A stretch of 56,216 nucleotides of DNA from Candidatus Poseidoniales archaeon (GCA_028283345.1 JAPOGE010000001.1:1-56216); one strand, 5' to 3'. Positions 29,201 through 45,969 are shown, numbered from the stretch's first letter. A program made the numbers and translations. The notes: a model not told the origin generated them from the letters alone.

Positions 29201-31297
29201 GCGAATCCATTCATCATCACTACCCTTCACCCCACCGCGTAATTCCGTCGCGGCGACGAATGTAGCACTCTCGCCACCACCCCCAGCCACCGGGCGTGGG
29301 TCGCGCATCTTGTCGGTGCGACGATAGCCAGCCAGACGGGTCTCGACATCATCCTCACGTTGATTGGCCTCTTTGATGGTGACGATGGCCCGCTCCATCA
29401 CCGTCACCTGTGCCTGGCGGAAGCGGTAGATGCTCTGTTTCACATCCCCCACCAGACAGATGGTCGGATCCCAAGGCCCTTTGGGGGCCTCCGGTTCCCC
29501 GGATTCGAGTTTACGCCTCCCCCACAACCGTGACAGCAGGCGGAATTGTTGCGGGTTGGTATCCTGATATTCATCGATGATGAAAGCCCGATAGCGTCGT
29601 CTCAGACGGGCGAGATGGTCGTAACGGCGTTCCAGGTCCTGGGTTGCCAATTCTCCGTCTTTTCCGGATGGGGCCAGATTCAGCGCCCGCAGGATGTGCT
29701 CATCCAACCATGGCCTGTCACCGAGATCATCCAGTTCATTCACCATCACCGTGGGATACCAATTTCGACATACGTCGGGACAGCGAGCCAACAATAGATC
29801 CTCGGCATATCTCTGCATATCACTGTGGTCGTAAACCCCTTCGCTCAGTTTGATGTGATTGAGAATCGACAGGACTCCGCGTTGGAGGGTGAATAGGTCA
29901 CCGAGCACCGCCGCCTGCAATTGTGAAGGCATTCGGGTATGGTCATCATCCATATGGCGCGGTAGAGGATTATCGAGGTCGGTGGGAAGATTTGCCCCGT
30001 GGTCCGGCAGGGAGACCAGGGGCAGTGTCGGGTGGAGCAGGAAGGCCATTTGCCCGAATTGGCGGGCGGCTCGTCCGGTGGTGGTAGCCAATAGGGCGCG
30101 GAACACCTGAGCCGCTGACTCGGCCGCATCTCTGGCGGATTGACGGTCGGCTTCTGCCACCGCCCCCCACGGTTTCAGCCCACTCAGCCAGCCACCTTGG
30201 CCGGTTCCGGTCGGCAATAGTGCATTTGGCAGGGCTTTGGGAACCGCTTTGTCATACTGGGTTTTGGACATAGAAGCCCACGAAACGTGGTGAATCCACT
30301 GGAGTTTCTCCCACTCATCCTCGGGAAGGTCTTCGGCTGCCATGGTGTTGAGATGGGTGATTCGGTTATCGTCACCAAGACTTTCATCCATTCCCAATTT
30401 CACCGATTGTGCTCGCAGAGCCTCCAACCAATCTTTCAGCGCCACTTGCAATTGTTCGGCAAATTCACTCAGGTCGCCGGCAATCCCCAACAACAAATCG
30501 CAGATTGCCTGCAGGGAGATTTCGTGGCTTGGTCCACCCGAGGCGGTACGCAATTGCCGCTCGGCCTCTTCGACGAATAGTGGCTGTTTGAGCAGAGCCA
30601 TCAGCATTCGCTCAGCCGCCCCGCGCCCGCCCAACAACCAGGCCAATCGATTGCGGGCCGACATGAATGCGGCCGGGTCCATCCCAATTCCCGCCAACGA
30701 GGCATGACCCTCATTCTGTAGGCGCCAGGCGGTGTTGATGGCACGGGCGAGCAGAACCGGACGTTGGGCATCGCTGACCAATTCACTCGAAGGGTCATCG
30801 CTGACCGTGGCGAGATGGGGTGAGACCAAGCCCGAAAGAAAACTGTCTATGGTGCCGATCGGCGCATCTTCGAGCAGGCTCTTCAACTGCTCGATATCAC
30901 CGGCTTTTCGCAGTCGCACATCGACGGTCGCATCTGGGGCATTAGGGTCGGGTGCTGAGCGCAGGTTGGAGAGTCGGTCGCGGATTCTCTGCCGCAGTTC
31001 ATCGGCGGCCTTGTTGGTGAAGGTTATCGCCACCACCTCAGAGGGAAGGAGAGCATGCCATTCCTCCATATCGCTGAGTTCAATCGCCGGTGCCCGAATC
31101 GCGCCCCGCCCCCGCAGTGGTACCCGCGGACCCTTCGGCAGTAATTCGGTCGCCCGTTGCCGGGCCTCGAGCAGGTGCTCGACATAGCGCATCGACATCA
31201 CCGTGGTCTTGCCGGTACCGGCACCGGCATCGACGGCCAGATGACGGTCGAGGTCGAGGCCTAAGACCTGACTGCGATTTGGCTTCAAAGCCATCAC
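26201..31297 (-). CDS. AddA/UvrD-like SF1 helicase fused to a C-terminal RecB-type (PD-(D/E)XK) nuclease; 1698 aa
   Basis: Helicase motifs DAGAGTGKT, ITFTNKAADEL, IIDEYQDTNPQQ, LVGDVKQSIYRFRQA, TTNFRT, VMTIHSAKGLEAKVVV and LFYVALTRVENHL. Nuclease motifs GRIDLALAV, VVDLKTEG and LQLALY, flanked by Cys residues (FACNRRLW ... CRTCPYYYSGIRLC). The start is the GTG at 31297 or the ATG at 31294, overlapping the upstream stop. Confidence 0.88.
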   Translation of the reverse strand: MMALKPNRSQVLGLDLDRHLAVDAGAGTGKTTVMSMRYVEHLLEARQRATELLPKGPRVPLRGRGAIRAPAIELSDMEEWHALLPSEVVAITFTNKAADELRQRIRDRLSNLRSAPDPNAPDATVDVRLRKAGDIEQLKSLLEDAPIGTIDSFLSGLVSPHLATVSDDPSSELVSDAQRPVLLARAINTAWRLQNEGHASLAGIGMDPAAFMSARNRLAWLLGGRGAAERMLMALLKQPLFVEEAERQLRTASGGPSHEISLQAICDLLLGIAGDLSEFAEQLQVALKDWLEALRAQSVKLGMDESLGDDNRITHLNTMAAEDLPEDEWEKLQWIHHVSWASMSKTQYDKAVPKALPNALLPTGTGQGGWLSGLKPWGAVAEADRQSARDAAESAAQVFRALLATTTGRAARQFGQMAFLLHPTLPLVSLPDHGANLPTDLDNPLPRHMDDDHTRMPSQLQAAVLGDLFTLQRGVLSILNHIKLSEGVYDHSDMQRYAEDLLLARCPDVCRNWYPTVMVNELDDLGDRPWLDEHILRALNLAPSGKDGELATQDLERRYDHLARLRRRYRAFIIDEYQDTNPQQFRLLSRLWGRRKLESGEPEAPKGPWDPTICLVGDVKQSIYRFRQAQVTVMERAIVTIKEANQREDDVETRLAGYRRTDKMRDPRPVAGGGGESATFVAATELRGGVKGSDDEWIRIDIGDDEHTVLSDEIKRERALGHIDLTTNFRTAPNVLATLNNWFIDVFAPCHDLLPGTWHARSQPLNPPILKDGEEPRVGQIEWLATVPFGEGDASTDLDQYLDPFTIGERAKPHERENEMIAARLHALVNGLSLRLRGVGEGSDAVWREIPGVPAVKPEDILILLPRRKHVTDLLRRLQAWGVPAQADRQGALFMRPVVRELNHLLQILARPHDRHHAAAFARGSLVGMSDSQLELLFNGKGVKPNANLLMRLVQIAPTKPQRRLLARLQQLANRGQIITALTTALESGDILLVHPGLDSLQDGEQFIQLLEELRQQAGGDVELLADAVSILADQKEGALESMAIPPTGAVRVMTIHSAKGLEAKVVVLAGLFHEGHYSSAIEKQSSVVVTPELLAVNARPWRHVPAPLSGTWELAKALLDAQTAAERRRLFYVALTRVENHLIMVGAPAASSCSADGTLHLKRPVSRLPSMGEMWLDALRYSAHEDDDEESPWRMANDQVGEDLAIATDSWKLALNAIELYDDPHLGKAPLKHLTIIHDPRSFTSLESRLSVRKAMAEHLKNAAGAKGNSVGLEKRPTPRSLKLSLAPHRLDLSFACNRRLWLGDVRGWSSEPMVLGQPEVNGGKDAAGATATATATTSSGVGKAGAGVAGVGAGAGVAGAADAAGVIAGAVGAVGAIAGVAGLPDAATLGSLFHRLVEVGIGNPAEGGKLSGLDDQWLQAQASRLLEPAVIEQVLDELLPASADRAGTGQRLAVLAQIQEDGRLGKLCSGEEFDGQKVVGLRTELPFHLTVAVGADGRSITRWSVGGEVELAEIGEIQVTFDGRIDLALAVDGDGGPTLQVVDLKTEGCGQPFDETDPANGHELQHPVADPFSTAAQSDHEQDLLDKHRLQLALYTMVLERSQFRLPQKERRNVLPPAIQVSASGRMVVMSEAELTQAKLDFSQLLERMVEMKLNPHDEPERLPKEQGEICRTCPYYYSGIRLCGPQGEPLGVRPL

Positions 31298-34200
31298 TTA
31301 TCACCTCCCAGTAATTCTCTGAGGCCACAGATAGTGCTGACATTGCAGTATTTACACGAATCCTCGGACGGGGTCGGTCGGCACTCTCCCTGCTCAGCGG
31401 CTCTGGCGACCTTTACCGCCACTGATAGCCGTTGGCGCATCCAGGCGCGGAACGGATTGCTTTTCGGCTCCGAACCTTCACCGGGTCGACGAAACAACAA
31501 GTCGGAAAAGAAGGTCATCTCACCGAGGCCATCGGTATTCACAAGACCACTTGCCGAGGCATCGAATTCGATATAGTGAGTAACCGTCTCACCGGCTTCG
31601 GTGATACCGATTCCGACCACTCGATCACCGGGATTCATCAATTCCCAGGCGCGGGCATAGAGGGCTAATTGCACCTCTTCATACAGTGATTTGCGGTGGC
31701 GTTTACCGCGGTCATCCGAGTCAGGTCCCTTGACCGTCTTCAAATCGCGAATCACCACATAGCGCTGGGCATTCCATTCCGTATCCATATCCAAATCAAG
31801 CGGGCAGACCTCTTCCTCACCATCCTTGTCGACCCAGCCCACGCCGGCATTATTCCACAATATCTCGACTCGGTCTATTCGTCCCCTGACCTTCAGTGAG
31901 CCGATTTCGGTCGCCGCCGCAGCACCATCGGCACCAGCCGCACCGTCCTTGGCCACCACCCCCTCGGTAGTTTTCGCACCAACCTGGCCAACCTTAGCCA
32001 AAATCGGCGGTAACATCGCCGAGCCCCCGGCTTCGGTCGCGGCTTCGGCCGCGGTTTCGGTCGCTACATCTGCCGCGGCCTCGCTAGCACTAGCAGACCT
32101 GTCCGACTCGGCTGCCTTGGCCACCAATTCCTCTTTGGCGGCTTTGGTGGCTTTGGCCGCGGCCTTGACCGCGGCCTTGTCATCGGGCGAAAACGGGACT
32201 GAAATCGTCACGTGGTCGTCATCGCCCTGCTCAAGCGGTGCCTCGAGGGCGATGATACAGGATTCGTTCAACCGCAGTTCGGCCGCAAGCAATCGCCCGA
32301 TCGAGCCATCGAGTTCCATCTTACGCGGTCTGCTGATGAAGGACTCGACCTCGGCTCGGCTCATCGCCAATAAATCGTGGCGGCGCTGGGCCGCGACCGC
32401 ATCACCTCGCCCCAACCATTGGGCTAAGCCGAGAACGATGCCGACTAGGTCGGACATCAGGGCTTTCTTGTCGGTGCCGCTCTTGGCAAGATTGGTTTTC
32501 TTAGGATTACTCGGCAAGTCTCGCACTTCGCCGACGGGAAAACCCAATTTCTCACAGATGAGATGCGCCAGGCTGTCGTGATAGAGTGTGCCGCGGGTAC
32601 GGGCATCGAGGTCTTCTCGAAGTTGCTCATCGACGGTAGCCCGCAGATGTCGCTCCAACCAACCCTTTCTCGGGCATTCCAACCAGGTGTTCAACCGGCT
32701 TGCCGACCATATCTGCGGCTTCAGTTTCATGTCACCATCATGACCGTGCCGCTGGTCGTAATTCGGCAGTTTCAGCGGTTTCGGATTCAGCGGGCGCGGG
32801 TCGGTGCCGGGGATGATGGTGCGAGGACCCGGGCGGCCGGTCAAAGCCGGCCATCTGTCGGCCGCTCGTAACTTCATTCGCTTAACCGGCCACTTCTTTC
32901 CCGGGTCCAATTTCTGTCGCTCCAGCGTCACCAATTGCTGATGCGCCGCAGAATCAACCCACAAATCATGCAGATCGGGGGTCTGTGGTTCGCGTGAATA
33001 TCTCTCGTGCATCATCTGCTCTTCCCACCCGAGTGCCAGCGCAGGAGCCGACAACGGCGAGGAATCCACCTTACGACCCTCGGCCAACGCCAACCCGGTA
33101 TTCTGCCGGTGATGCCGCACCCTCGTGCCATTGATGTCACAGCGCACCCCGTCAGCGGTGATGGTGACCGCGGCCGGCCTTGGTGTCAGATGGGAACTCC
33201 GGGCATTATCATCCTCTACCATATCCCAGCACCGGGCATGGTCGCCATCATCCCAATCATCGGGCGAGAGGAAAATCGGTGGTTCAGCCATAGATGACCT
33301 TTCATCGATTGTCAGATTGGCCAGCCATTCGGCCAACGGCGCACTGGGTTGATTATCCGGGTCACTGGAGGGGTCGAGCACGACCACCGTCCTACCCGCA
33401 TTGAGCAGGTGACGCAGGAAGTGACGGGCATCGCAAAGCGGCGCATCCGGGCGCAGGATACCCAATTCCAACTTGGCCTCGGCATCTAGCCAGGGCACTT
33501 TGACACAACCCATCGACCACTCCTTGGCAGAGAGCCCGCAGATGATGACCAAGTCGGCCTTACAGCCCAGACCGGCACCGGGAGTAAGCAACTCGACCTG
33601 AGATTCACTGCGCTTTTCGGGGATTGAAGACTCGGCTACCATCATCGCCAGTTCCTCGACCCACCCGGGGCCATTCACCTGACCCTGATAGCCGGCGGCG
33701 GCGAGCATCTCGCCCCCGCGGCGTGATAATTCCATCAGCCTCTGTAATCCAGCAACGCTTCCACCACTGCCACCACCATCGACCAGACTCTCCCACTCGA
33801 TGATACCCATCAGCGATGATAGCCAAGCCTCGCCATCGTCCAGACCAGAAGAAGATTCGACCAGGGGTAAGGTTCTCTGGCTCACCGCGCCCTTCATAAG
33901 GCCAAATTCATCGAGTGCCTGTAGGTCTTCTTCCCCGAGCAGGGGACGGATGAATTCAGCGAGATTTCGTACCCACCACTGGGTCTCCTCCAGGGCGATG
34001 AGAAGTTTTTCAGCACCGACCATCAACGGGTCGGGGCGCCAGGTATCCAAAGCGTGTAACCAGCGCCCCAAGGCTCCGCCACCACCGAGGATATGGAAGG
34101 AACGGGCGATATCCTCAAGGATGCGGGCATGGCCACGGGAACTGAACTTGGTCTTGCCAGCCACACCGGCTGCACCTCCAGCAGCCCCACCGCCAGCCGC

Positions 34201-35583
34201 ACCACCAACGGTACCAGCCACACCGGGATGCTCTCCACCGGCCAACCAATCGGGCACGAAGGGCAGGGTCTTCTGCACCGCCAAAGCGCGCAGTGACTGC
34301 ATCGACCAGGCCTCTTGACCGTGTGCGAGTTTTGCCAATGCCATGACCCAATGAATCGCCGGATTGGCCAACAGGGGTTGTGCCGGGGCCGATAGCGAAT
34401 GCGCCCGCTCAGCCAGGGCCTCGACCCAATTCGAGTGCCGAGACGCCAGTCCGGCATCGGCGATGATTACCGAATTACCTCCCGATGCCACAGCCAGACC
34501 GGCACCAGTCGTACCGGCCGCATCAGCAGCCGCAGCCGCATGCGCCTCAAAGGAGTCCAGAAGTGCGAGTGCGGCATCGAAATCATGCCCGGCACGTCCG
34601 AGGTTGACCCGGTGCACCGACGATTTCCCATAAGCCCCATCCTCCATGTGCCACGGCATCTGTTCAGGGGCGCGCCATGGTCGGCGGCGTGCGGGCCCTA
34701 CGGTTTCCCCGGTTTCCCCGGCTTGACCGACAAGGTCTGCGAATACCTCCGGCAGGGAATCGACACTGTTGCAGACCTCGATATCGAACAACCAGGCACC
34801 GTGCTCACCCAAGCGGAACTTGCCGCCGTGTCCGATTTGATGCAAGGGGACGAAGCGTGCCAAAGCGATGAGGAATTGCCGCCGCAACCACGACAGTGAA
34901 GGCGGCAGATCGAGAACGACGATGCCGTCGATATTGCCTAGGGTGAACGGGGTCTGGTCGGCATCGGCCCAGCGATTCAACTCGGCGACCACGTGGGAGA
35001 GACGACGATCGGGATGGAGCCGCTCGACCTCATCTTCGAGGTTTCCCAAAACCTTGGAGAACTCGACCACCCCAGGGTCACCATCCCATGAATAATCGGG
35101 ATTCTCCTCGGCCAGGGCCGAATGCAATTGCGATAATCTCTCGCTCTTTGAGTGTGGCCAGACGCGGTCGGCGATGGGATGTATCACCGGGAAGGCGAAC
35201 TCGGCCGCCGCCTTTTGACAGGCGGCGTGTACCAATAGGCTGGTAGTGCCATCATCAGACAACATTCTCGGCAGTCTCAGGTCGACATGGATGGCCTCGA
35301 TCAAACGGTCGATGGTCGCCAACAGCGACGGGTCGATCCCGGCAGGTTGCGCCCGGCCAATCTCGGTGACACTCTGTCTTCGGGCAGCATCGGTGGCATG
35401 GATGACCAGCAGGCGGGGTTTTCCTGCGCCTGAACCTTCTTGGGTGGTCTGGGTGGTCTGGGTAAAGTGGTCGAACAACCATTGCGGCAGGCCTATCCCT
35501 GCGGGAATGTGTTCCATGGAAATAGCCGACTCAGAGGGAGGAATGTCCTCATCATTCGTTGCCGCTATCGCCACCTGCACCAC
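31294..35583 (-). CDS. AddB-like partner subunit with a C-terminal Cas4/AddB-type 4-Cys PD-(D/E)XK nuclease; 1429 aa
   Basis: No Walker A seen. The C-terminus has SASRLNTWLECPRKGWLERHL, GTLYH, GRIDRVE, VIRDLKT, QLALYARA and CKYCNVSTIC (C...C-x2-C-x5-C). Long Ala/Gly/Glu-rich insertions are present. Confidence 0.78.
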   Translation of the reverse strand: MVQVAIAATNDEDIPPSESAISMEHIPAGIGLPQWLFDHFTQTTQTTQEGSGAGKPRLLVIHATDAARRQSVTEIGRAQPAGIDPSLLATIDRLIEAIHVDLRLPRMLSDDGTTSLLVHAACQKAAAEFAFPVIHPIADRVWPHSKSERLSQLHSALAEENPDYSWDGDPGVVEFSKVLGNLEDEVERLHPDRRLSHVVAELNRWADADQTPFTLGNIDGIVVLDLPPSLSWLRRQFLIALARFVPLHQIGHGGKFRLGEHGAWLFDIEVCNSVDSLPEVFADLVGQAGETGETVGPARRRPWRAPEQMPWHMEDGAYGKSSVHRVNLGRAGHDFDAALALLDSFEAHAAAAADAAGTTGAGLAVASGGNSVIIADAGLASRHSNWVEALAERAHSLSAPAQPLLANPAIHWVMALAKLAHGQEAWSMQSLRALAVQKTLPFVPDWLAGGEHPGVAGTVGGAAGGGAAGGAAGVAGKTKFSSRGHARILEDIARSFHILGGGGALGRWLHALDTWRPDPLMVGAEKLLIALEETQWWVRNLAEFIRPLLGEEDLQALDEFGLMKGAVSQRTLPLVESSSGLDDGEAWLSSLMGIIEWESLVDGGGSGGSVAGLQRLMELSRRGGEMLAAAGYQGQVNGPGWVEELAMMVAESSIPEKRSESQVELLTPGAGLGCKADLVIICGLSAKEWSMGCVKVPWLDAEAKLELGILRPDAPLCDARHFLRHLLNAGRTVVVLDPSSDPDNQPSAPLAEWLANLTIDERSSMAEPPIFLSPDDWDDGDHARCWDMVEDDNARSSHLTPRPAAVTITADGVRCDINGTRVRHHRQNTGLALAEGRKVDSSPLSAPALALGWEEQMMHERYSREPQTPDLHDLWVDSAAHQQLVTLERQKLDPGKKWPVKRMKLRAADRWPALTGRPGPRTIIPGTDPRPLNPKPLKLPNYDQRHGHDGDMKLKPQIWSASRLNTWLECPRKGWLERHLRATVDEQLREDLDARTRGTLYHDSLAHLICEKLGFPVGEVRDLPSNPKKTNLAKSGTDKKALMSDLVGIVLGLAQWLGRGDAVAAQRRHDLLAMSRAEVESFISRPRKMELDGSIGRLLAAELRLNESCIIALEAPLEQGDDDHVTISVPFSPDDKAAVKAAAKATKAAKEELVAKAAESDRSASASEAAADVATETAAEAATEAGGSAMLPPILAKVGQVGAKTTEGVVAKDGAAGADGAAAATEIGSLKVRGRIDRVEILWNNAGVGWVDKDGEEEVCPLDLDMDTEWNAQRYVVIRDLKTVKGPDSDDRGKRHRKSLYEEVQLALYARAWELMNPGDRVVGIGITEAGETVTHYIEFDASASGLVNTDGLGEMTFFSDLLFRRPGEGSEPKSNPFRAWMRQRLSVAVKVARAAEQGECRPTPSEDSCKYCNVSTICGLRELLGGDK

Positions 35584-35849
35584 CGAGGTTTCCCCTTTGA
35601 CGGCAGGGGTACTTCAACCCTTCACCACGGGAGGGGGAAGAAATGCGATTGCCCACTTTTTCACCCCGGGGAGAAATTCGCAGGGTAGGTCGCACCCGGA
35701 CATTGTTTCTCCTTCGGCACTGGAGAAATTTTCTCGCCACTGTAATACTCCGCATAGGATTACCCGCCCATTTCCCGGTCGAAAGTCTGCGTGGATGACC
35801 ACCCGGGCGCCCTAGAAGGCCAGCAAGTGAATACTGGCTTGGGTGAATA

Positions 35850-35882
35850 CATGAACAGTTCATGTTTGTATTTTTATTATAC
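35850..35882. promoter_or_regulatory. Perfect 15-bp palindrome (CATGAACAGTTCATG, 35850-35864) abutting a strong TATA-like tract (tttgtatttttattata, 35865-35881)
   Basis: Direct reading. It lies in the middle of a 494-bp non-coding gap, about 195 nt from the nearest plus-strand start and about 265 nt from the nearest minus-strand start. Confidence 0.3.
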
Positions 35883-36077
35883 GCCCCGCCATGGTAGCGT
35901 CGCCTTGATAAGGGGCGGAAGTCACTATTGAAAAGCCGGAAGGCGACAGGAAGAGATAACTGAAGGTAATAACTACGACTGATACTAGGCAAATGATTAC
36001 AATTGCAACTTTTTTTCCATCATTTGCTCACCCACATATCTCAGCCAGATATTCCGTCGCCCGGTGGAGCCGTTACC

Positions 36078-37148
36078 ATGAGTGATAAAAAAGATACTGA
36101 CCGAACAGAAAGTGAAGAAGCCTGCGATGAGTGCGGATATATCCGTGCCGCGAACGAAAATAACGAGGTTGAATGCCCGCAATGCGGCCTACAGCCTTGT
36201 GGAGAAGAACTCGATATCCACCATCCGGGAAATACCCAGGGCGAAGAGGCGCACATGCATGCCGCCGGAAATAACCGAGTGAGAAACCGTAACCGAATGC
36301 CGGGTACCTACATCGACCGTAACGACATTCGCCGCAACGGCCAAGCCGGCCGAGCGACACGCGATTCACTGTACCGAATACTGCGCGAGCATGTGCGGAT
36401 GAATTGCACTCGCCCGACCTTCGCCGACGATTGCATCGGCCAGATTCGCAGCCTGGGGCTGGGTCGCGAGATTGAGAACATCCTCATCGGGATTTTCCGT
36501 GCCTGCCTGAACGAGGCCGAAAACGAGGCCGATGTGGGGCCACTGCCGCGCAACGAAATGCGCTTCATGACCGACCGCGACGCCGCTTACCGCCAACGCG
36601 TCTGTGTCGTCGCCGGCCTGCGTGCCGCCGCGGCTTTCGGGCTATGCGAAGGAATCCTCTCAGCCCGGTATGCCCAGACTTGGGGTCTTGACCTTGGCGA
36701 TTGCCGACGCATGACCAAGAAGTTCATCTCCCGAATCAAGCGCATGATGGTGGCACAATATGGTGATGAGGACGAAGCCCGTCGTATCGAAGCAATACAA
36801 CAACGACGCCGCACCCAGATGCACCGGGACGGTGAATTGTCGGCACAGGTCTGTCAATTGCGTGAGACCCTGACCAATACCGAGCTCGACTACCTCACCA
36901 TTCGCGCCCTGATGCGTCAGGTCTCGGGTTGGATTCTCCAATTGGGCGAACCGGGCTGTGAGGCCGTATTCGCCAATGTCCGCGCCGACATGCTGGTGGC
37001 GATTCTCATCCGTCGCGCCTTGGCCGGCCAGCGCATAAGGAATTTCTTTAGCATCACCGCAGAAGGCCTGGGGCTGTCTGCGGGCGGAGTGACCCAGCGA
37101 GCCGGACGGCTGTCTCGTGAGTTCGACCGCCACCTCGGCCACGACTAG
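36078..37148 (+). CDS. Zinc-ribbon protein, possibly a divergent TFB/TFIIB-family paralog
   Basis: Start at the ATG at 36078 (MSDKKDTDRTESEEA). CDECGY-x14-CPQCG zinc ribbon. Two helical segments have a cyclin-repeat-like pattern (IGQIRSLGLGREIENILIGIFRACLNE...VCVVAGLRAAAAFGL; a second repeat ends ...GLSAGGVTQRAGRLSREF). Similarity to canonical TFB is weak. Confidence 0.55.
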   Translation: MSDKKDTDRTESEEACDECGYIRAANENNEVECPQCGLQPCGEELDIHHPGNTQGEEAHMHAAGNNRVRNRNRMPGTYIDRNDIRRNGQAGRATRDSLYRILREHVRMNCTRPTFADDCIGQIRSLGLGREIENILIGIFRACLNEAENEADVGPLPRNEMRFMTDRDAAYRQRVCVVAGLRAAAAFGLCEGILSARYAQTWGLDLGDCRRMTKKFISRIKRMMVAQYGDEDEARRIEAIQQRRRTQMHRDGELSAQVCQLRETLTNTELDYLTIRALMRQVSGWILQLGEPGCEAVFANVRADMLVAILIRRALAGQRIRNFFSITAEGLGLSAGGVTQRAGRLSREFDRHLGHD

Positions 37149-37242: not shown

Positions 37243-38154
37243 ATGCGTAGGTTACTCTGTCTGGCAGTCGCCCTGCTCCTGTTCATCCCTTCACCTGCGG
37301 TTTCAGCCGGCCATAGCACCGATAATGACGCTATCACCGGCGGAGGGATTTTCGGCGGTGGCAAGATTTCTGCCAACGCCTCGGGAGCGATCGAAATACC
37401 GTTTTCCGACCTGCCCGGCCTAGCCGAGGATTTCACCGCCACCTGGTGCGATAACTGCGTATATGTCGAGCATGCTCTGCATAATGTTTCACAGGATACC
37501 GGGACCGAGGTACTCTACTTCCACCGTAATAACGACATCGAAGACCCGTTCGGCAGTGATAGCGGAGATTCGTGGTGGCAGAGGCGGTACGGCTCAGGCA
37601 TCCCTCCCACGGTGGTATTCAATGGTGATGATCTGCGCGCTGGTTCACTGCCCGGAGAGCAGAGCCTCGATGATGAGTTCACCGCCAAGGTGGTACGGGA
37701 CTTCGACCTCGGCAACGGCGACAGTCAGTTCATCTGGGCACTGGAGAATAACAACACCACCGGGGCCTTTGTCTGGTCATTACAATATGATTCGACCCAC
37801 GCCACATTCGCTGAGGCGGCCGGAATTCAATCCTGGCTATTCGTGCTCGAGGATAGTTCCTACTTCCCCGACGGCGGTAATGGACTTGAGGACTATCCCA
37901 ATGTCGTTCTCGACGTCATCGACCTCGGCACCGAATCTGAGGGTTTGTACAACCTCATCCTACCCAGTGCCTATGATGGCGACGACATCACCCTGATGCT
38001 CATCCATGAATTGATTCCCCTGCCACCGAGCACGGACAATGACACCGAGGGGTCTTCGGAAGATTCGGGTTTTCTTCCCTCGATCACCTTGATGGCGGCC
38101 CTCTCAGTGGTCGCAATGGCGGCGATTTATCGGCCTTCGCGCAGTGAGCCCTAG
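37243..38154 (+). CDS. Secreted thioredoxin-like (WCDNC) protein with a PGF-CTERM-like C-terminal anchor
   Basis: Signal peptide MRRLLCLAVALLLFIPSPAVSA and a TATWCDNCVYVEHAL CxxC motif. The C-terminus has an S/T/D/E linker, then SGFLPSITLMAALSVVAMAAIYRPSR. Confidence 0.65.
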   Translation: MRRLLCLAVALLLFIPSPAVSAGHSTDNDAITGGGIFGGGKISANASGAIEIPFSDLPGLAEDFTATWCDNCVYVEHALHNVSQDTGTEVLYFHRNNDIEDPFGSDSGDSWWQRRYGSGIPPTVVFNGDDLRAGSLPGEQSLDDEFTAKVVRDFDLGNGDSQFIWALENNNTTGAFVWSLQYDSTHATFAEAAGIQSWLFVLEDSSYFPDGGNGLEDYPNVVLDVIDLGTESEGLYNLILPSAYDGDDITLMLIHELIPLPPSTDNDTEGSSEDSGFLPSITLMAALSVVAMAAIYRPSRSEP

Positions 38155-38158
38155 AGAC

Positions 38159-41100
38159 TTAGGCGACGAGGTCAGCATGGTCATCACCGACATCGGCATA
38201 TGATAATTCCATATCCCAGGTCATCTGCAAATCATGCGGCAGTTCGGGCCGGATTCGCCGATAAGCCCACCACCACGGCGCTTCGCCGCGGCGGCCGAAG
38301 TGTACTTGCATGGGTCGCAGTAGCCGGGCAATCTGTGCCAGGGCATCCTCGGCCGGTGCCATCACCCGAGCCCATATCTCAAGTTGATTTTCTTCACCAC
38401 CCACATTGCCGGCGGCTACCACTTCGTCTTCGACATCGGCGGCTTCATCGGCTTCATCGGCTTCATCGGGTTCAGCAGGTTCAGCAGGTTCAGCAGGTTC
38501 AGCAGGTTCAGCAGGTTCAGCAGGTTCAGCAGGTTCAGCAGGTTCAGCCGCATCGGCATCATCATCGGCACCATCGGTTCTCTCCCATCCCAGAACCGTC
38601 GCTAATCGGCGGATGAATTCCTTTTCGCCATCATTGCGGATATTCATCTGGAAGCCGCAACCGGCAAATTGCAACAGCCCACCTCGGTGGCGAGGAATGG
38701 TCATCTCCTCCTGTAGCGGCAGGGCTTGCAGGATGCGACTGAGCAGAGGAAAGAGGGTGGTCCAGCGCGGCGTCCTGATTCCGACTGGTCCAGCCTGCAG
38801 GTTGCCGGCGAATTCCAACTCTCGAAACGCCTCCTCGTTGCGGGCTAATTCTCCGAGCCGCTCAACCCTCTCGGCGAGTTCGGCCGGATCACCCAATTCA
38901 CCCAATTCACCCAGTTCACCTAATTCAGCCGGATCACCCAGTTCGGCCGGATCACCCAGTTCACCTAATTCAGCCGGATTACCCAGTTCGGCCGGATCAC
39001 CCAGTTCAGCGGGTTCAACCGCTTGAAATTCCGGAACCGGGTCACCATAGGGGGGGTTAGCAACGACATCGACGACAATTTCGACATCGGCATCATCTTC
39101 AACCTCAATATCAACTCGAACTTCGGGTCTCTGCGCCTGCTGTCTTCTCTCTCTATCCCTCTCCCTTGGGCCCAGGTAGTTCTGGATCGCATGGTCCAGT
39201 CGAACTTCGATATTTCTGATGGCATCGTCAGCATCGCCGCCAGCATCGCCAGCATCGCCAGCATCGCCAGCATCGCCAGCATTGCCGAGTCGCATCTGGA
39301 AATCGGGCCAGCGCTCGGCATTGACGCGCCAATAATCACGGATTCGCCCGAGATTCTGTCGCTGTTGCCGATAGTATTGCCGCCATTCGGGATTGCCGCG
39401 CAGAGGATGGTCATGATCGTGCCGGCCACCGCGGTGACGCCGTTCAGCGTACTCGGGATTGTCGGCTTCAAACAGGAATTGTTGCAATGAATCGATACGT
39501 TGCGCACTGCCGATATCATCCAACAGACTGAGAACGACCGAGGCGATAACATCACCGAGCGGCATTTTTCGCTTCCCTTGTTGGCCGGTATGAATACAGA
39601 GGTTGCGGCCACGCTCGCCATTGCTCTGGTCGGTCGGGTGCGCCCACCCCAGAATACTGAATGGCGCATTATGCGCGCCTTCTCGGGTATCGACCGCATA
39701 GGCACAACCACTACGGCCACGAATCATGATCTTTCTATCCTGCATACGCACTCGGTCACGATTGGCGTGACAGATATCACGCAGTAGACCTAAAGCACGA
39801 ACCTCGGGAGCGGACAAGCTCAGTTCGGGGCGGGTGTTCTTCCAGTTCCAGCGCAGTGCCATGAACAGGTTATGGTGGCGGCTTTCGGGGGGCGATAAAG
39901 CCCAACTTGTCAGCAGTGCCCACAGGCGGGGGTCGTGCGGCAAGGTCGTGCGAATCCAATGGCCATCCTGATTCAGCACCCGCAGTAAGATTGCCCCCTT
40001 TCTGGTACAGAATGATGAGCGGGAATCATCCATTAATTCGACCCCTTCTTCGCCGACTTTACGCCAGCGTTCAACCCATGGTTCATCCCCGGTCAAACCA
40101 TCCTCCCAATCTTCCGCGTGGATATGAAAGCCGGTGATGGACGAGTAGCCGCCGTAGCGGTGGGCATGAAGATGGTGATAGCGGTGGTGGAGGTCTGAAG
40201 GCTGTCGTGAAATCGGCCTTATCTTCTCCTCTGGAAGGCCGGGTAGGCTCCAGGACAACCAGCGCATCACTCCGGATAGCGGATTGCGACTCAGCGACAA
40301 ATCGAAGCCCTGGGCTTTCGCCAACATGATGTGGCGAAATGCTGTATGACTGGCATTGATCAAGCGCGCCATCGTCGTCGCTTGGCGCTCGGAGAATTTC
40401 AAATTCTCATCATCGATCAAGACCGACATCGTCGGAATCAGTTTCGGCCAATCGAATCTGGTCGGCGCAATACCGCCTTTCGGTCGGCGAGTCATAGCTC
40501 GTCTGAGTGCTTCGACCGGGAAATTTCCCGGCAAAGCCTGGCCATCGAGAAAAATCATTCTGCCGGTGATGGAAAGTAATGTGCCATCGTGTAATTCCAC
40601 CCCTCTCTGCAGAACTCGCAATTCATGTTTGGTGGCCGGTCGTGAAAGTGGGAGATTAGCGAAATACTGCTTCCACTCCACCAGTAATCTCCTCGCCTGT
40701 GCCGGTCTGACCAATCGTGAATCGGCGGGGGCTCCCAAGGGTGCTTTCCCGTCAGCACCGGTCCTATCGGCACCGCTGGAAGCACCGGTCGTGAGCCGGT
40801 CAGACTTGCCAGTGCCGGAAGTACCGGCGGCCTCGCCATCATCGAGGAGCGCCCAGCGCAGGTCATTGGTCGGGGAAAATTCTTCGATTATTCGCTGTAT
40901 TTTGGCACTTTTTGGCTTGTCATACAGTGGCTGAAAGAGATTACAGATTCTGGTATTTGCCCACCGGTTCGGCATTTTCCAGACAATTTCACCGAGAATT
41001 CCCTCGGTCACAACTTTACATCTATCGCACCAATTACTCCAGTTGACCCGCTTTCTCGGGGTGGCATGAATGGGCAGGACGGATTGGTTGGCTTGGCCCG

Positions 41101-41230
41101 TCTGTTCGGGCGGATTGGCCTGATTGACCGGATTGGACTGATTACCATTACCGGTTTGATTGGCTTGAACGCCCGATTTTTTATTTGTCGAATTTCTTTG
41201 ATTCTCTTTACACAGAGTACATATTGCCAT
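38159..41230 (-). CDS. 1023-aa ORFan with a split N-terminal zinc ribbon and three in-frame microsatellite arrays; function unknown
   Basis: Single long ORF. CTLC ... (about 60 aa of Q/N/P-rich spacer) ... CDRC. A His-rich patch HHRYHHLHAHRYGG, then (GDA)n, (PAELGD/ELG)n and (AEP)8(DEA)3 arrays. I recognise no family-level motif. Confidence 0.75.
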   Translation of the reverse strand: MAICTLCKENQRNSTNKKSGVQANQTGNGNQSNPVNQANPPEQTGQANQSVLPIHATPRKRVNWSNWCDRCKVVTEGILGEIVWKMPNRWANTRICNLFQPLYDKPKSAKIQRIIEEFSPTNDLRWALLDDGEAAGTSGTGKSDRLTTGASSGADRTGADGKAPLGAPADSRLVRPAQARRLLVEWKQYFANLPLSRPATKHELRVLQRGVELHDGTLLSITGRMIFLDGQALPGNFPVEALRRAMTRRPKGGIAPTRFDWPKLIPTMSVLIDDENLKFSERQATTMARLINASHTAFRHIMLAKAQGFDLSLSRNPLSGVMRWLSWSLPGLPEEKIRPISRQPSDLHHRYHHLHAHRYGGYSSITGFHIHAEDWEDGLTGDEPWVERWRKVGEEGVELMDDSRSSFCTRKGAILLRVLNQDGHWIRTTLPHDPRLWALLTSWALSPPESRHHNLFMALRWNWKNTRPELSLSAPEVRALGLLRDICHANRDRVRMQDRKIMIRGRSGCAYAVDTREGAHNAPFSILGWAHPTDQSNGERGRNLCIHTGQQGKRKMPLGDVIASVVLSLLDDIGSAQRIDSLQQFLFEADNPEYAERRHRGGRHDHDHPLRGNPEWRQYYRQQRQNLGRIRDYWRVNAERWPDFQMRLGNAGDAGDAGDAGDAGGDADDAIRNIEVRLDHAIQNYLGPRERDRERRQQAQRPEVRVDIEVEDDADVEIVVDVVANPPYGDPVPEFQAVEPAELGDPAELGNPAELGELGDPAELGDPAELGELGELGELGDPAELAERVERLGELARNEEAFRELEFAGNLQAGPVGIRTPRWTTLFPLLSRILQALPLQEEMTIPRHRGGLLQFAGCGFQMNIRNDGEKEFIRRLATVLGWERTDGADDDADAAEPAEPAEPAEPAEPAEPAEPAEPAEPDEADEADEAADVEDEVVAAGNVGGEENQLEIWARVMAPAEDALAQIARLLRPMQVHFGRRGEAPWWWAYRRIRPELPHDLQMTWDMELSYADVGDDHADLVA
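38442..38549. repeat. 9-bp tandem arrays: gcttcatcg x3 followed by ggttcagca x8 (+1 variant); encode (DEA)3 and (AEP)8 on the minus strand
   Basis: Direct reading; perfect copies at 38469-38540. Confidence 0.95.
38877..39012. repeat. Mixed 18-bp / 9-bp tandem array (gttcggccggatcaccca / attcaccca units); encodes PAELGD / ELG repeats
   Basis: Direct reading; the protein reads AELGDPAELGNPAELGELGDPAELGDPAELGELGELGELGDPAEL. Confidence 0.9.
39222..39296. repeat. 9-bp tandem array (gcatcgcca, about 7 copies including variants); encodes (GDA)n
   Basis: Direct reading; the protein reads GNAGDAGDAGDAGDAGGDADDA. Confidence 0.9.
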
Positions 41231-41550
41231 TTTAACACATCTTTGGTTGGGGTCAGTTAAGGTTCAAACAGATTTGGATTTGAGGCTTTTCTCGCCTTTC
41301 CACATAGGATATTATTCATTCACCCTATATGAATAACGAATTATTATCATCGAGCCACTTTAGTGGCTAGATGAAATAAATACACGGTTGCTTTCAGGTT
41401 TCGTCCTTTGAATCCTATTACTTTGATTCGGACGCTATTCAACTTGTTCAAACGAGTCACAAACGCTCATCTGAAACTCTCAGTTCTGTACTGCTGATTC
41501 CGGATACAGAAATGCTTCCAGCGCAGTTTCCTCTTCGCTTGCTCCTCGCG

Positions 41551-41589
41551 GTGCGTCCTCAGAATAATGATGCTGGGTTTAGGACGCAC
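41551..41589 (-). terminator. 8-bp-stem hairpin (gtgcgtcc ... ggacgcac) immediately after the ltaE stop codon
   Basis: Perfect 8-bp complementary arms with a 23-nt loop. No oligo-T tract follows on the minus strand, so the terminator role is uncertain. Confidence 0.25.
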
Positions 41590-43269: not shown

Positions 43270-45969
43270 ATGCGATTTGAGATGAAACGAGCACTGCTGA
43301 TTGTACTGATGATGATTTTTTCGACCGCCGCCGGCTGTCTTAACCCAACCGACGATGTGGAGGGATGTGTGGATGCCATCGCAACCAACTACAACGCTGA
43401 CGCGACCGTCGACGATGGTTCGTGTGAGTTCGCTGACTCGGACGGCGACGGCATATACGACCACCTAGAGGTTACTGGATGCACCGACTCCAACGCTTCG
43501 AACTACGCTGCCAACGCCACGGATGACGATGGCTCATGCACTTTCGCTGACTCGGACGGAGACGGCGTTATCGATTCCGATGATTCCTGTCCGTACACCC
43601 CGGCCACCGACGTGGTCGATGCCAATGGCTGTACCGTCATCCCCGATGCCGATGGCGATGGCGTCGACGACGACGTCGACGAATGCCCCAGTACTACGGT
43701 GGGCACTGATGTCGATGACGTCGGTTGCCCGGTACCGGTGGCAATCGAGGTCTCAATCGGTCTGTTGAGCCCGCAGAGCGGTGAATTGTCCGACCTTTCC
43801 GAGAGCATTGAAAGAGCCGCGAATCTCGCCGTCAACCACATGAATGATGGACAGTACGTCTACGAATTCACCCTGATTGTCGAAGATTCCGGCTGTGACG
43901 CGACCACCGCCGCAGCCGCGACACAATCCCTGGCCGATTCCGGGGTCAGCGGCATCGTCGGCCCGGCCTGTGATAACGCCGCCATGAGCGCCATGCAGGT
44001 GGCGATGAGCGAGAAAATCCCTCTGATCTCCTATGCCAGTTCCTCGCCGGCCCTCAGCACCGCGGTCGATGATGGCTACATGTGGCGGGTCGTCGCCAGT
44101 ATCGCATACGAAGGAATCGCCGCCGCCACCTGGGCGCAATTGGCTCAGATCACCAACCCTGCGGTGATGGCCAGGAATTCCACCGCCGAAGCGCCGATTG
44201 CCCAGGCTTTCATCGCCTCAGCAATGGCGGCTGGAATACAACTCTGCTACACTTCATTCTACTCCGATGATACCACCAACTTCTCTGCCGATGTAGCGGC
44301 CATCAAGGCCGCAGGGTGTGACGGCGTCTTCCTTGTTTCTGAATTCACCGACGGCAGTGCCATCATCGAGGAACTCGCCGCTCAGGAACTTCTCGGCGAG
44401 GATGGCATCACCGTGGTTGGGCATGGTGGTATCGGCGATGCTGATTTTGCTGATGAATTCGATAACCCCGGCTTGCTCGACGGTATCTACGGCTCGCGCG
44501 CCGCCTCCTCAGAGAGCACCCTCGAGGTGTATCAATTCATCCAGCGCTACCTGAGCGCCTACGGTAGCGACCCGGGAGAACATGCACCTGAGGTCTACGA
44601 TGCCACCACCCTGTTGATGCTGGCTGTCGGCCAAGCCGGGAGCACCGACGGTGAATCAGTCCGAGATGCTCTGATGACGGTTGGTCAGGAGCACGCCGGG
44701 GCGAGTGGGGATTTCTCCTTCTCAGACAATGGTGATGTTCCCGGGGCACATTTCGAGTTCTGGAAGTTCACCTGTGAGGACTGTGATGACGACGGTGTCG
44801 GCAACTTGCTGGCCTTCGAAGTGGTCGCCACCTGGAGCCCATATTCCGGAATCTGGGCGAATTGCCGCAGTGGTACGCCGCAGGTGCAGATCGGGGTTCT
44901 TTATCCCGCCACCGGAGCCGGTAGCGCCGGTAGTGAGAGTTTCCTCTACGGAGTTCAATTATCAGCCATGCTCATCAATGTCCAACAGCGAGACATATGT
45001 TTCATGGTCATCTCTGCAGATACCGAGGGAACCACAGCCGGTGCGGCCGCGGCGGCGCAGGAACTCATCGATGCCGGAGTGGTGGGAATCGTTGGCCCAG
45101 CCGATTGTGCCGAGACGATGGCTGCGACAGATGTTGCCGTAGCCGCGAAAACAACCATCATCTCCTATGCGTGCACATCACCGGAGTTGACAGATTACGA
45201 CGATGGCAGTGATACCTATGGTAATGGTTACCTCTGGCGCACCACCCACAGCGATGCTTGGCCAGCCGATGCCGCGGCTGATTATGCCGCTGAGAATGGC
45301 CATTCCTCGATTGCAGTTTATCGAACCGCCGATGCGGATGGCGACACCTTGGCCTCATCCCTGACCTCTGCGGTCGGCGGCACCTTGTGCGCCGACATCA
45401 CCTTCACACCAGGCTCGCTCGGCACCACCGCCGATGCGGTCGGTTGTGATGCGGTGGTCATCTTTGCCGATGCCGGCGATAGTGCGATGATTGTCGATGA
45501 CCTTGCGGCGCAGGGTTTCACCGGAGAAATCATCGGCAACGGGGCGATGGATAGTGATGAATTCAATGCCGCGGTAACCACCTCGACCGATAATATGGTC
45601 ATCGTCAGTTTTTCCGAGGAGAGTTTCTCCTCGACCCTCTCCAATGCCTTCGGTATTGCCTACATGATGAATTATGGCACCGCACCACCGGCTTTCTCCG
45701 CCGAGGCAGCTGATGGCGGTTTGATTATCGCGGTATCCTTCATCTTCGGCTATAACTCCGGCCTTTCAGCACAGACAAATAGCGAATACGTCAACTGGTT
45801 CATTCCCGCAATCGCCGATGAATATGCCGGCGCCTCCGGCTACCTGACCGTCGATGCCAACACTGGAGATATGCCGAGCAAGGGTCACTTCAACATCTTC
45901 CGCATGGTCTCGGGAACCCTCCAACTCGAGTATACCTGGGACCCTTTGAGTGGTTTAGATGCGGCCTGA
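43270..45969 (+). CDS. Lipoprotein with TSP3-like Ca-binding repeats and two tandem type-1 periplasmic-binding (Leu/Ile/Val-binding-like) domains
   Basis: Lipobox-like MMIFSTAAGC. Two C-x-D...NY..A..DDGSC-x-F modules. DSDGDGVIDSDDSCP / DADGDGVDDDVDECP repeats. Two copies of the PBP1 pattern (IVGPACDNAAMSAMQVAMSEKIPLISYASSSPALS and IVGPADCAETMAATDVAVAAKTTIISYACTSPELT). Confidence 0.85.
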   Translation: MRFEMKRALLIVLMMIFSTAAGCLNPTDDVEGCVDAIATNYNADATVDDGSCEFADSDGDGIYDHLEVTGCTDSNASNYAANATDDDGSCTFADSDGDGVIDSDDSCPYTPATDVVDANGCTVIPDADGDGVDDDVDECPSTTVGTDVDDVGCPVPVAIEVSIGLLSPQSGELSDLSESIERAANLAVNHMNDGQYVYEFTLIVEDSGCDATTAAAATQSLADSGVSGIVGPACDNAAMSAMQVAMSEKIPLISYASSSPALSTAVDDGYMWRVVASIAYEGIAAATWAQLAQITNPAVMARNSTAEAPIAQAFIASAMAAGIQLCYTSFYSDDTTNFSADVAAIKAAGCDGVFLVSEFTDGSAIIEELAAQELLGEDGITVVGHGGIGDADFADEFDNPGLLDGIYGSRAASSESTLEVYQFIQRYLSAYGSDPGEHAPEVYDATTLLMLAVGQAGSTDGESVRDALMTVGQEHAGASGDFSFSDNGDVPGAHFEFWKFTCEDCDDDGVGNLLAFEVVATWSPYSGIWANCRSGTPQVQIGVLYPATGAGSAGSESFLYGVQLSAMLINVQQRDICFMVISADTEGTTAGAAAAAQELIDAGVVGIVGPADCAETMAATDVAVAAKTTIISYACTSPELTDYDDGSDTYGNGYLWRTTHSDAWPADAAADYAAENGHSSIAVYRTADADGDTLASSLTSAVGGTLCADITFTPGSLGTTADAVGCDAVVIFADAGDSAMIVDDLAAQGFTGEIIGNGAMDSDEFNAAVTTSTDNMVIVSFSEESFSSTLSNAFGIAYMMNYGTAPPAFSAEAADGGLIIAVSFIFGYNSGLSAQTNSEYVNWFIPAIADEYAGASGYLTVDANTGDMPSKGHFNIFRMVSGTLQLEYTWDPLSGLDAA

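Follow-up and report, generated by a model that had tools for sequence, protein, structure and literature searches.

A family of uncharacterised multidomain proteins in Poseidoniales archaea with an invariant Cys-Asp-Asp core and acidic linkers of variable length

A stretch of 56,216 nucleotides from a Candidatus Poseidoniales archaeon (GCA_028283345.1 JAPOGE010000001.1:1-56216), referred to here in its entirety as the window, carries on its minus strand, at positions 38159-41230, a gene for a protein of 1023 amino acids (aa) that we assigned to a protein family, as yet uncharacterised, with long and short paralogues, which is known only from Poseidoniales and similar marine archaeal metagenome-assembled genomes (MAGs). 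Taking the evidence as a whole, the explanation that we favour, and regard as fairly probable, is that this family is vertically inherited and order-specific, and that the protein is a cytoplasmic multidomain protein with an invariant Cys-Asp-Asp core and acidic linkers that vary in length by slippage. Marine Group II (MGII) archaea, as yet uncultured, rank among the most abundant archaea of the plankton, and the conserved proteins specific to their lineages are for the most part a black box.

A protein family known from marine archaea

The gene consists of a single open reading frame (ORF) with an ATG start, 1023 codons and a stop, which makes it a complete coding sequence (CDS). Its translation contains CTLC, CDRC, HHRYHHLHAHRYGG, VLIDDE and SSITGFHIH, all the strings quoted in the original prediction, and Tandem Repeats Finder (TRF) recovered the repeat arrays, so that the description of one uninterrupted ORF carrying these motifs and arrays was confirmed throughout. 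The ratio of nonsynonymous to synonymous substitution rates (dN/dS) between the window gene and a 96% identical relative (L019) was 0.24; this is therefore a real gene under purifying selection. Overall, it is a genuine chromosomal gene of an MGII (Poseidoniales) archaeon and has been vertically inherited.

The same prediction had considered the gene an ORFan, a view that the homology searches overturned. A word-indexed search returned five homologues with 54-67% identity, one of them named Candidatus Poseidoniaceae, and an exhaustive hidden Markov model (HMM) search of 1.84 billion representatives retrieved 111 proteins at E <= 1e-3 and 64 at E <= 1e-10, the 111 being counted at the 50% cluster level. 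In addition, two metagenome contigs (L014, and L019 from a contig of 98.9 kb) carry an orthologue with 96% identity in protein and 96.9% in DNA. Most of the 111 representatives are 550-800 aa long, and the region they have in common corresponds to profile positions ~330-545. Word-indexed searches with two further alignments (A2 and A3) brought almost nothing new, the A2 search having probably been swamped by low-complexity words. No relatives were present in the phage, plasmid and IMG/VR collections searched, IMG/VR having been scanned with alignment A1.

The members are always annotated as "hypothetical protein" and, where a source gives a lineage, it is Poseidoniaceae, Thalassarchaeaceae, "marine group II/III euryarchaeote" or marine Thermoplasmatota MAGs, with a single exception: a 604-aa fragment (P0005), 67% identical to the window protein and located on a 2-kb contig, which NCBI labels "Pseudomonadales bacterium" and which is probably a mis-binned MGII contig. 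A subfamily of short paralogues (~380-440 aa) also exists, and one assembly, GCA_002503395.1 (UBA60), carries one long and one short form. Some lineages have two family members in tandem (572 and 667 aa at positions 9974-13808 of L010/L011; at least 542 and 672 aa at positions 1-3700 of L004), and the window has one copy of the family.

The original prediction also recognised no known family in the protein, and in this respect the searches agree with it, since no match of the full 1023-aa protein reached the cut-off in Pfam, NCBIfam, PHROGs or PADLOC. The sub-threshold matches in these curated libraries, Collagen and tail fibre, are low-complexity artefacts on the repeats. Pfam likewise gave no match at E <= 10 for the 64 members, 46 core domains, 10 short or atypical members and 4 sub-domains; sequence-profile searches of the PDB gave no significant match, and Foldseek none at E <= 1e-3, either for the full-length model against PDB and BFVD or for the core model against PDB. 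The sequences are already public as hypothetical proteins and the family is uncharacterised; as none of the tests applied here revealed a significant relative by sequence or fold, it does not fit any known kind. We found no description of it in the literature searched. A set of 199 Poseidoniales-specific hypothetical families, including modules 32 and 71, has been reported (PMC9258230), and the present family is likewise order-restricted, conserved and without Pfam or KEGG annotation; that study does not single it out. As many similar lineage-specific families exist, the finding is solid but of moderate interest.

An invariant core within a multidomain protein

The anatomy of the protein was deduced from a 64-sequence alignment (A2) and two AlphaFold2 models, and the two sources agree (Table 1). 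The full-length model has a mean predicted local distance difference test (pLDDT) score of 69.8, with 362 residues at 90 or above, and the model of the core alone reaches a pLDDT of 90.3 and a predicted template modelling (pTM) score of 0.70. All segments of the full-length model with pLDDT < 50 coincide with low-complexity or repeat tracts. Folded parts and linkers have opposite charges, the former with a net +13 (isoelectric point, pI, 9.4) and the latter with a net -49 (pI 4.05). The protein has no hydrophobic segment of membrane-spanning length and is therefore predicted to be soluble and cytoplasmic.

The most constant part of the family is the two-lobe alpha/beta core, and within it three residues, Cys545, Asp560 and Asp572, are invariant in all representatives, whether long or short, in which the respective position is covered. 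Other core residues follow closely: Gly505 in 102 of 104 representatives, Tyr or Trp at position 511 in 100 of 104, and Gly559 in 98 of 107. His520 is found in ~70% of the members and has been lost in one subfamily. Judged by sequence, the true hallmark of the family is the pattern G-x-x-G-x-x-[YW] ... C-[ILV] ... G-D ... [DN]-D. In the AlphaFold2 model the elements around Cys545 are a helix (474-489), four strands (494-497, 500-504, 510-514 and 525-529), the loop that bears Cys545, a long helix (558-570) and two further helices (580-590 and 592-599).

At the N-terminus, the two CxxC pairs that had been described as a split zinc ribbon do represent a conserved motif of zinc-ribbon type, but the split is a peculiarity of the lineage and the underlying ribbon is an ordinary one. 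The pattern CxxC-x(8-30)-CxxC occurs in 45 of the 64 members, with a spacer most commonly of 8-11 aa and conservation of the cysteines of 86-89%, and the Q/N/P-rich 60-aa spacer between CTLC and CDRC in the window protein is the longest of the set. This low-complexity loop has the same length in the close relatives L014 and L019 and in a near-identical fragment (P0006). The pairs form a predicted C4 zinc ribbon, similar to those of archaeal information-processing proteins (TFB/TFIIB-type PF08271, Spt4 and TFS) in having the CxxC-x(8-11)-CxxC motif, which most family members share; a true PF08271 ribbon is present in the orthologue of a neighbouring gene. Unlike those ribbons, it has no zinc-ribbon Pfam match, its loop is stretched by the 60-aa insertion in the window lineage, and its metal binding is predicted. 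The His-rich patch, to which the original prediction had also drawn attention, proved to be a disordered loop, absent from the close homologue P0004 and poorly occupied across the family.

Possible function of the core

Cys545, the Gly-Asp560 pair and Asp572 most likely constitute a putative active site, in which a cysteine nucleophile would be assisted by two carboxylates; the other possibility is a site for a metal or a ligand. Our best guess is that the protein is a Cys-dependent enzyme, or bears a metal site, on a cytoplasmic platform anchored by its zinc ribbon. Its net basic folded parts are strung together by strongly acidic disordered linkers, which would act as flexible spacers that drift in length by slippage. 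Docking onto a partner, either a nucleic acid or another protein, would probably be the task of the zinc ribbon and the basic domains.

Several points weigh against this interpretation. The invariant Cys and Asp residues might be structural or metal-binding and not catalytic. Searches of PDB profiles and Pfam, Foldseek and hhalign all failed to find a significant sequence or fold relative that could anchor a mechanism. The neighbourhood provides no functional clue either: the short paralogues sit in mutually unrelated housekeeping contexts (L020 and L022), with no consistent functional partner among their neighbours, and the synteny of the long form, conserved within one order, might reflect shared ancestry and not a functional link to the adjacent genes.

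An unlikely alternative, although the one that fares best, is that the protein is a non-enzymatic scaffold for nucleic acid or chromatin, in which the ribbon and the basic domains bind DNA or RNA, the Cys and Asp residues hold a structural metal, and the acidic linkers serve as spacers or mimic nucleic acid. The conserved C4 ribbon, the basic character of the folded domains (pI 11.2 for the middle one) and a stable neighbourhood that includes a TFB-type zinc-ribbon protein, AddAB-like genes and MCM are all consistent with such a role. However, neither Pfam nor Foldseek detected a known DNA- or RNA-binding fold or profile, one Cys with two Asp would be an unusual structural metal site, and the neighbourhood may simply be inherited.

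Less probable still, and in our view doubtful, is that aa ~470-600, the core lobe, represent a domain of the E2/UBC or RWD type that has diverged very far, with Cys545 as the catalytic residue forming the thioester. MGII archaea would then have, in this protein, a giant protein-modifying enzyme of E2-like type peculiar to them. The UBC fold has the order helix, four strands, Cys loop, long helix and two helices, and the modelled order of the core elements resembles it, with the invariant Cys545 (105/105) placed by the model in what would be the topologically equivalent loop, an equivalence derived from a non-significant alignment. E2 enzymes (UbcH5A, 2c4p; Rad6, 2yb6) and the E2-like/RWD lobes of FANCL (7kzp) are the top Foldseek matches of the core, which would share with them the element order and the position of the Cys loop: E2 enzymes account for 24 of the 38 matches of the full-length model and, together with FANCL, predominate in the top 50 of the core model. 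The best local hhalign alignment, itself non-significant, superimposes Cys545 on the E2 catalytic Cys and places [DN]-D at the end of helix 2.

These similarities are nevertheless not significant. The best Foldseek match, the E2 UbcH5A, has E = 0.19 and a template modelling (TM) score of 0.30; probabilities are <= 0.38, TM scores 0.30-0.35 and root-mean-square deviations 7-9 A. Because the PDB contains a great excess of E2 chains, the E2 matches are not mutually independent. Comparison by hhalign with five canonical E2s, the sequences of which were entered by hand, gave a probability of 0.3% and the same score as control regions, and hmmscan of 46 core sequences gave no match to the UQ_con, RWD, UEV or Prok-E2 families at E <= 10. 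In contrast to E2s, the family has no family-wide HPN motif, the HP[NT] motif (HPT, aa 531-533) being confined to close relatives, in a region that the family as a whole does not conserve; the domain forms part of a larger multidomain protein of 550-1000 aa with an extra N-terminal lobe; and there is no gene for an E1, ubiquitin-like (Ubl) or JAB partner in the window or in loci L005, L010, L012, L020 and L022. Should this doubtful assignment hold, MGII archaea would carry an order-specific protein-conjugation enzyme, or a wholly new Cys-dependent enzyme fold, fused to a zinc ribbon, with long and short paralogues per genome.

The family offers a concrete target for structural and biochemical work and is a candidate for a new Pfam/DUF entry, because of its order-wide conservation, purifying selection, confident model, invariant Cys-Asp-Asp residues and lack of resemblance to anything in Pfam, PDB or BFVD.

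Tandem repeats and linker length

The expectation that the repeat arrays of the gene had expanded recently and would be polymorphic in length was borne out. Between the window gene and its 96% identical relatives L014 and L019, length differences are confined to three arrays and are all multiples of 9 nucleotides (nt), the window gene being longer by 18 nt in (GDA)n, by 36 (L014) or 27 nt (L019) in (PAELGD/ELG)n and by 45 nt in the combined (AEP)n and (DEA)n tract. L014 and L019 themselves differ by one 9-nt unit in (PAELGD/ELG)n, and the window reads AEP x 9 where these relatives have TEP-DEP-AEP. The same behaviour is found within homologue clusters, in which full-length members with 97-99% identity differ by (NA)3/4, (DDN)2/3/4, (AE)3/4 and (ET)n in the equivalent linkers and have almost no indels in folded domains. 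The arrays are missing or different in the homologues at 54-67% identity.

As the units consist of three codons, linker length and charge vary and the gene cannot be switched off by these changes; the arrays tune the length of the linkers without ever breaking the reading frame and are not an on/off switch. We infer that the changes arise by replication slippage. An assembly artefact is unlikely because the arrays, of 65-132 bp, are short enough to be spanned by single reads. With perfect or near-perfect short units that vary in number between near-identical strains, the arrays recall the coding microsatellites in disordered linkers known from bacterial contingency loci and eukaryotic low-complexity proteins. 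Unlike bacterial contingency loci, the units here are of 9 bp, the frame is kept, and linker length and charge are tuned with no ON/OFF phase variation. The result provides a clean natural example of slippage-driven variation in linker length that leaves the folded domains untouched, and the arrays could serve as strain-level markers for MGII populations.

Repeats of this type extend beyond the gene. The window has about ten arrays with a TRF score >= 50, all with periods divisible by 3, of which the gene holds four, including the two with the highest scores; in-frame repeats were also found in the AddA-like (27147-27263) and AddB-like (32028-32083) genes described below. A perfect 12-bp x 5 tandem repeat (TGTCCGCATCGG) occupies positions 1-72 and is cut by the edge of the window.

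Genomic neighbourhood

The gene lies in a conserved order of genes: MCM, GatE, a 585/646-aa protein, DUF6580, PTH2, a beta-eliminating lyase, the gene under study, a convergent thioredoxin-like gene, a zinc-ribbon "TFB-like" gene, AddB-like and AddA-like. This order was found in the window, in a Poseidoniales MAG whose family member is 54% identical (L003), on the contig of P0004 and on contigs (L005-L008) whose family members are only ~24-30% identical. In a more distant lineage (L010/L011) the lyase side is rearranged, and linkage is retained among the family members, the thioredoxin-like gene, the gene for a TFB-type ribbon protein (PF08271) and the AddB/A-like genes. Relative to L005, the protein is 30% identical, compared with 52-61% for MCM, GatE and lyase and 31% for the AddB-like protein; it thus evolves faster than the first three and at a rate similar to the AddB-like gene.

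The pairing with thioredoxin-like and TFB-like genes that the original prediction had pointed out recurs in the syntenic loci listed above, where both genes accompany the family member; the second of them deserves its name only in part. The TFB-like gene (36003-37148, plus strand) has weak N-terminal zinc-ribbon matches and no cyclin-fold match, its positional counterpart in L010 matches PF08271, and it diverges very fast (22% identity to L005); it can therefore be called a TFB-ribbon protein at best, and does not qualify as a canonical TFB. The convergent neighbour (37243-38154, plus strand; 41% identity to L005) has a WCDNC motif and a weak thioredoxin match (E = 0.06), and by eye its product shows a hydrophobic N-terminal stretch resembling a signal peptide and a hydrophobic C-terminal stretch resembling a membrane anchor. 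It adjoins the family member in most loci examined; in L010/L011 a second family member lies between them.

The gene had further been described as flanked by two of the three largest non-coding stretches of the window. One gap, of 358 bp, does adjoin it upstream (41231-41588), but the downstream gap measures just 4 bp, and the other large one, of 419 bp (35584-36002), borders the 35.6-41.6 kb block and not the gene; both are within the approximately five largest of the window. The 358-bp AT-rich spacer, between lyase and the gene, contains a short hairpin, GAGCCACT-aa-AGTGGCTC, at ~41350-41370, the loop of which has a 1-nt indel in L014 and L019. This hairpin might terminate transcription of the lyase gene or serve in regulation.

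It is very unlikely that the 35.6-41.6 kb block constitutes a separate module of accessory, mobile or defence nature, with polymorphic repeats serving in host-virus conflict. Such a role might account for the fairly fast evolution of the protein relative to MCM, GatE and lyase, for the tandem paralogues of some lineages and for the hypervariable repeats. Yet the block is syntenic across Poseidoniales even where the protein retains 24-30% identity, and its guanine-cytosine (GC) content over 36-41 kb, 0.54-0.58, is like that of the rest of the window, falling to 0.50 just in the bin with the intergenic spacer. Scans for tRNA genes and Rfam families found no tRNA or RNA gene in the window, and there was no integrase or other mobility gene among the neighbours that could be annotated. 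PADLOC had no match for the protein, the phage, plasmid and IMG/VR collections had no relatives of it, and the repeat changes keep the frame and fall in disordered linkers. For the vertically inherited, order-specific family that we favour, the most likely role would instead be lineage-specific housekeeping, and not defence or mobility, because of the stable synteny, the purifying selection and the absence from mobile-element collections.

The remaining alternative, about which the original prediction had speculated, is an archaeo-eukaryotic primase-like enzyme in which VLIDDE would represent motif I and SSITGFHIH motif II. It was rejected as extremely improbable: both strings are in the window protein ~90 aa apart, and the six closest homologues share GFHIH and Asp274 without exception, but the close homologue P0004 reads VLVADGN, without DxD/DxE, the columns of VLIDDE (aa 270-275) and GFHIH are unconserved in the 64 members (0.14-0.28, with 0.14 for GFHIH), aa 230-470 have no match to the Pfam primase/Prim-Pol profiles at E <= 10, the Foldseek lists of the full-length and core models contain no primase structure, and the candidate region is modelled as mostly helical, disordered or of low confidence.

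Features of the gene

Table 1. Elements of the gene and its upstream region, with window coordinates, strand and supporting evidence
Feature	Position	Strand	Evidence
Complete CDS, 1023 aa + stop	38159..41230	-	ORF, homologues, dN/dS 0.24 vs L019
AT-rich upstream intergenic region, presumed promoter, with short hairpin	41231..41588	-	Sequence; 95% conserved in L014 and L019
First zinc-ribbon knuckle CTLC, aa 4-7	41210..41221	-	Cys4 in 86% of 64 members
Q/N/P-rich low-complexity loop between knuckles, aa 12-59	41054..41197	-	Occupancy 0.02-0.03; pLDDT < 50
Weak 9-bp array, part of Q/N/P spacer	41113-41143	-	TRF
Second zinc-ribbon knuckle CDRC, aa 68-71	41018..41029	-	Cys68 in 86%, Cys71 in 89% of members
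N-terminal helical domain after ribbon, aa 60-132	40835..41053	-	pLDDT ~80-96; helices 69-82, 89-102, 107-118
Basic middle domain, aa 170-340, pI 11.2, net +11, contains VLIDDE	40211..40723	-	Alignment, model, charge
His-rich disordered loop, aa 341-366, not conserved	40133..40210	-	pLDDT < 50 for aa 342-363; deleted in P0004; occupancy 0.46
Conserved two-lobe alpha/beta core, aa 380-602, family hallmark	39425..40093	-	Region common to exhaustive-search matches; pLDDT 90.3
Invariant Cys545 codon	39596..39598	-	Cys in 105/105 representatives
Invariant Asp560 codon	39551..39553	-	Asp in 107/107 representatives
Invariant Asp572 codon	39515..39517	-	Asp in 106/106 representatives
Basic helices interrupted by (GDA)n tract, aa ~614-700		-	Alignment and models
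(GDA)n, 9 bp x 6.9, disordered acidic linker	39222-39286	-	TRF; 18 nt longer than L014 and L019
Acidic disordered linker with ELG array, aa 701-786		-	Alignment and models
(PAELGD/ELG)n, periods 9/45/63, 9-bp sub-units, disordered acidic linker	38877-39008	-	TRF; 36 nt longer than L014, 27 nt longer than L019
C-terminal conserved alpha/beta domain, first half, aa 821-890	38561..38770	-	pLDDT ~89-97; occupancy 0.8-0.9
Acidic AEP/DEA linker, aa 891-947, splits C-terminal alpha/beta domain		-	pLDDT < 50 for aa 895-947
(AEP)n then (DEA)3 microsatellites combined	38440..38548	-	45 nt longer than L014 and L019
(AEP)n, 9 bp x 8.9, 100% matches	38469-38548	-	TRF
(DEA)n, 9 bp x 3.9	38440-38474	-	TRF
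C-terminal conserved domain, second half, aa 948-1023	38162..38389	-	pLDDT ~83-95; APWWW, TWDMELSYAD invariant in close homologues

Other observations in the window

The AddA-like gene (26201-31297, minus strand) encodes a protein of 1698 aa with a UvrD helicase and a PD-(D/E)XK domain, and the AddB-like gene (31294-35583, minus strand) one of 1429 aa with a PD-(D/E)XK domain; both are syntenic across Poseidoniales. Between PTH2 and DUF6580, at 43270-45969 on the plus strand, the window carries a gene for an 899-aa double periplasmic-binding protein whose N-terminal region is acidic and rich in Asp, and L003 has this gene in the same place. L005 lacks it there, which points to a local insertion or deletion within an otherwise conserved block. 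Finally, the segment 54001-56216, over a 607-aa prolyl-oligopeptidase (S9) ORF at 54116-55939, has a GC content of 0.40-0.44, compared with ~0.56 elsewhere, and may have been horizontally acquired.

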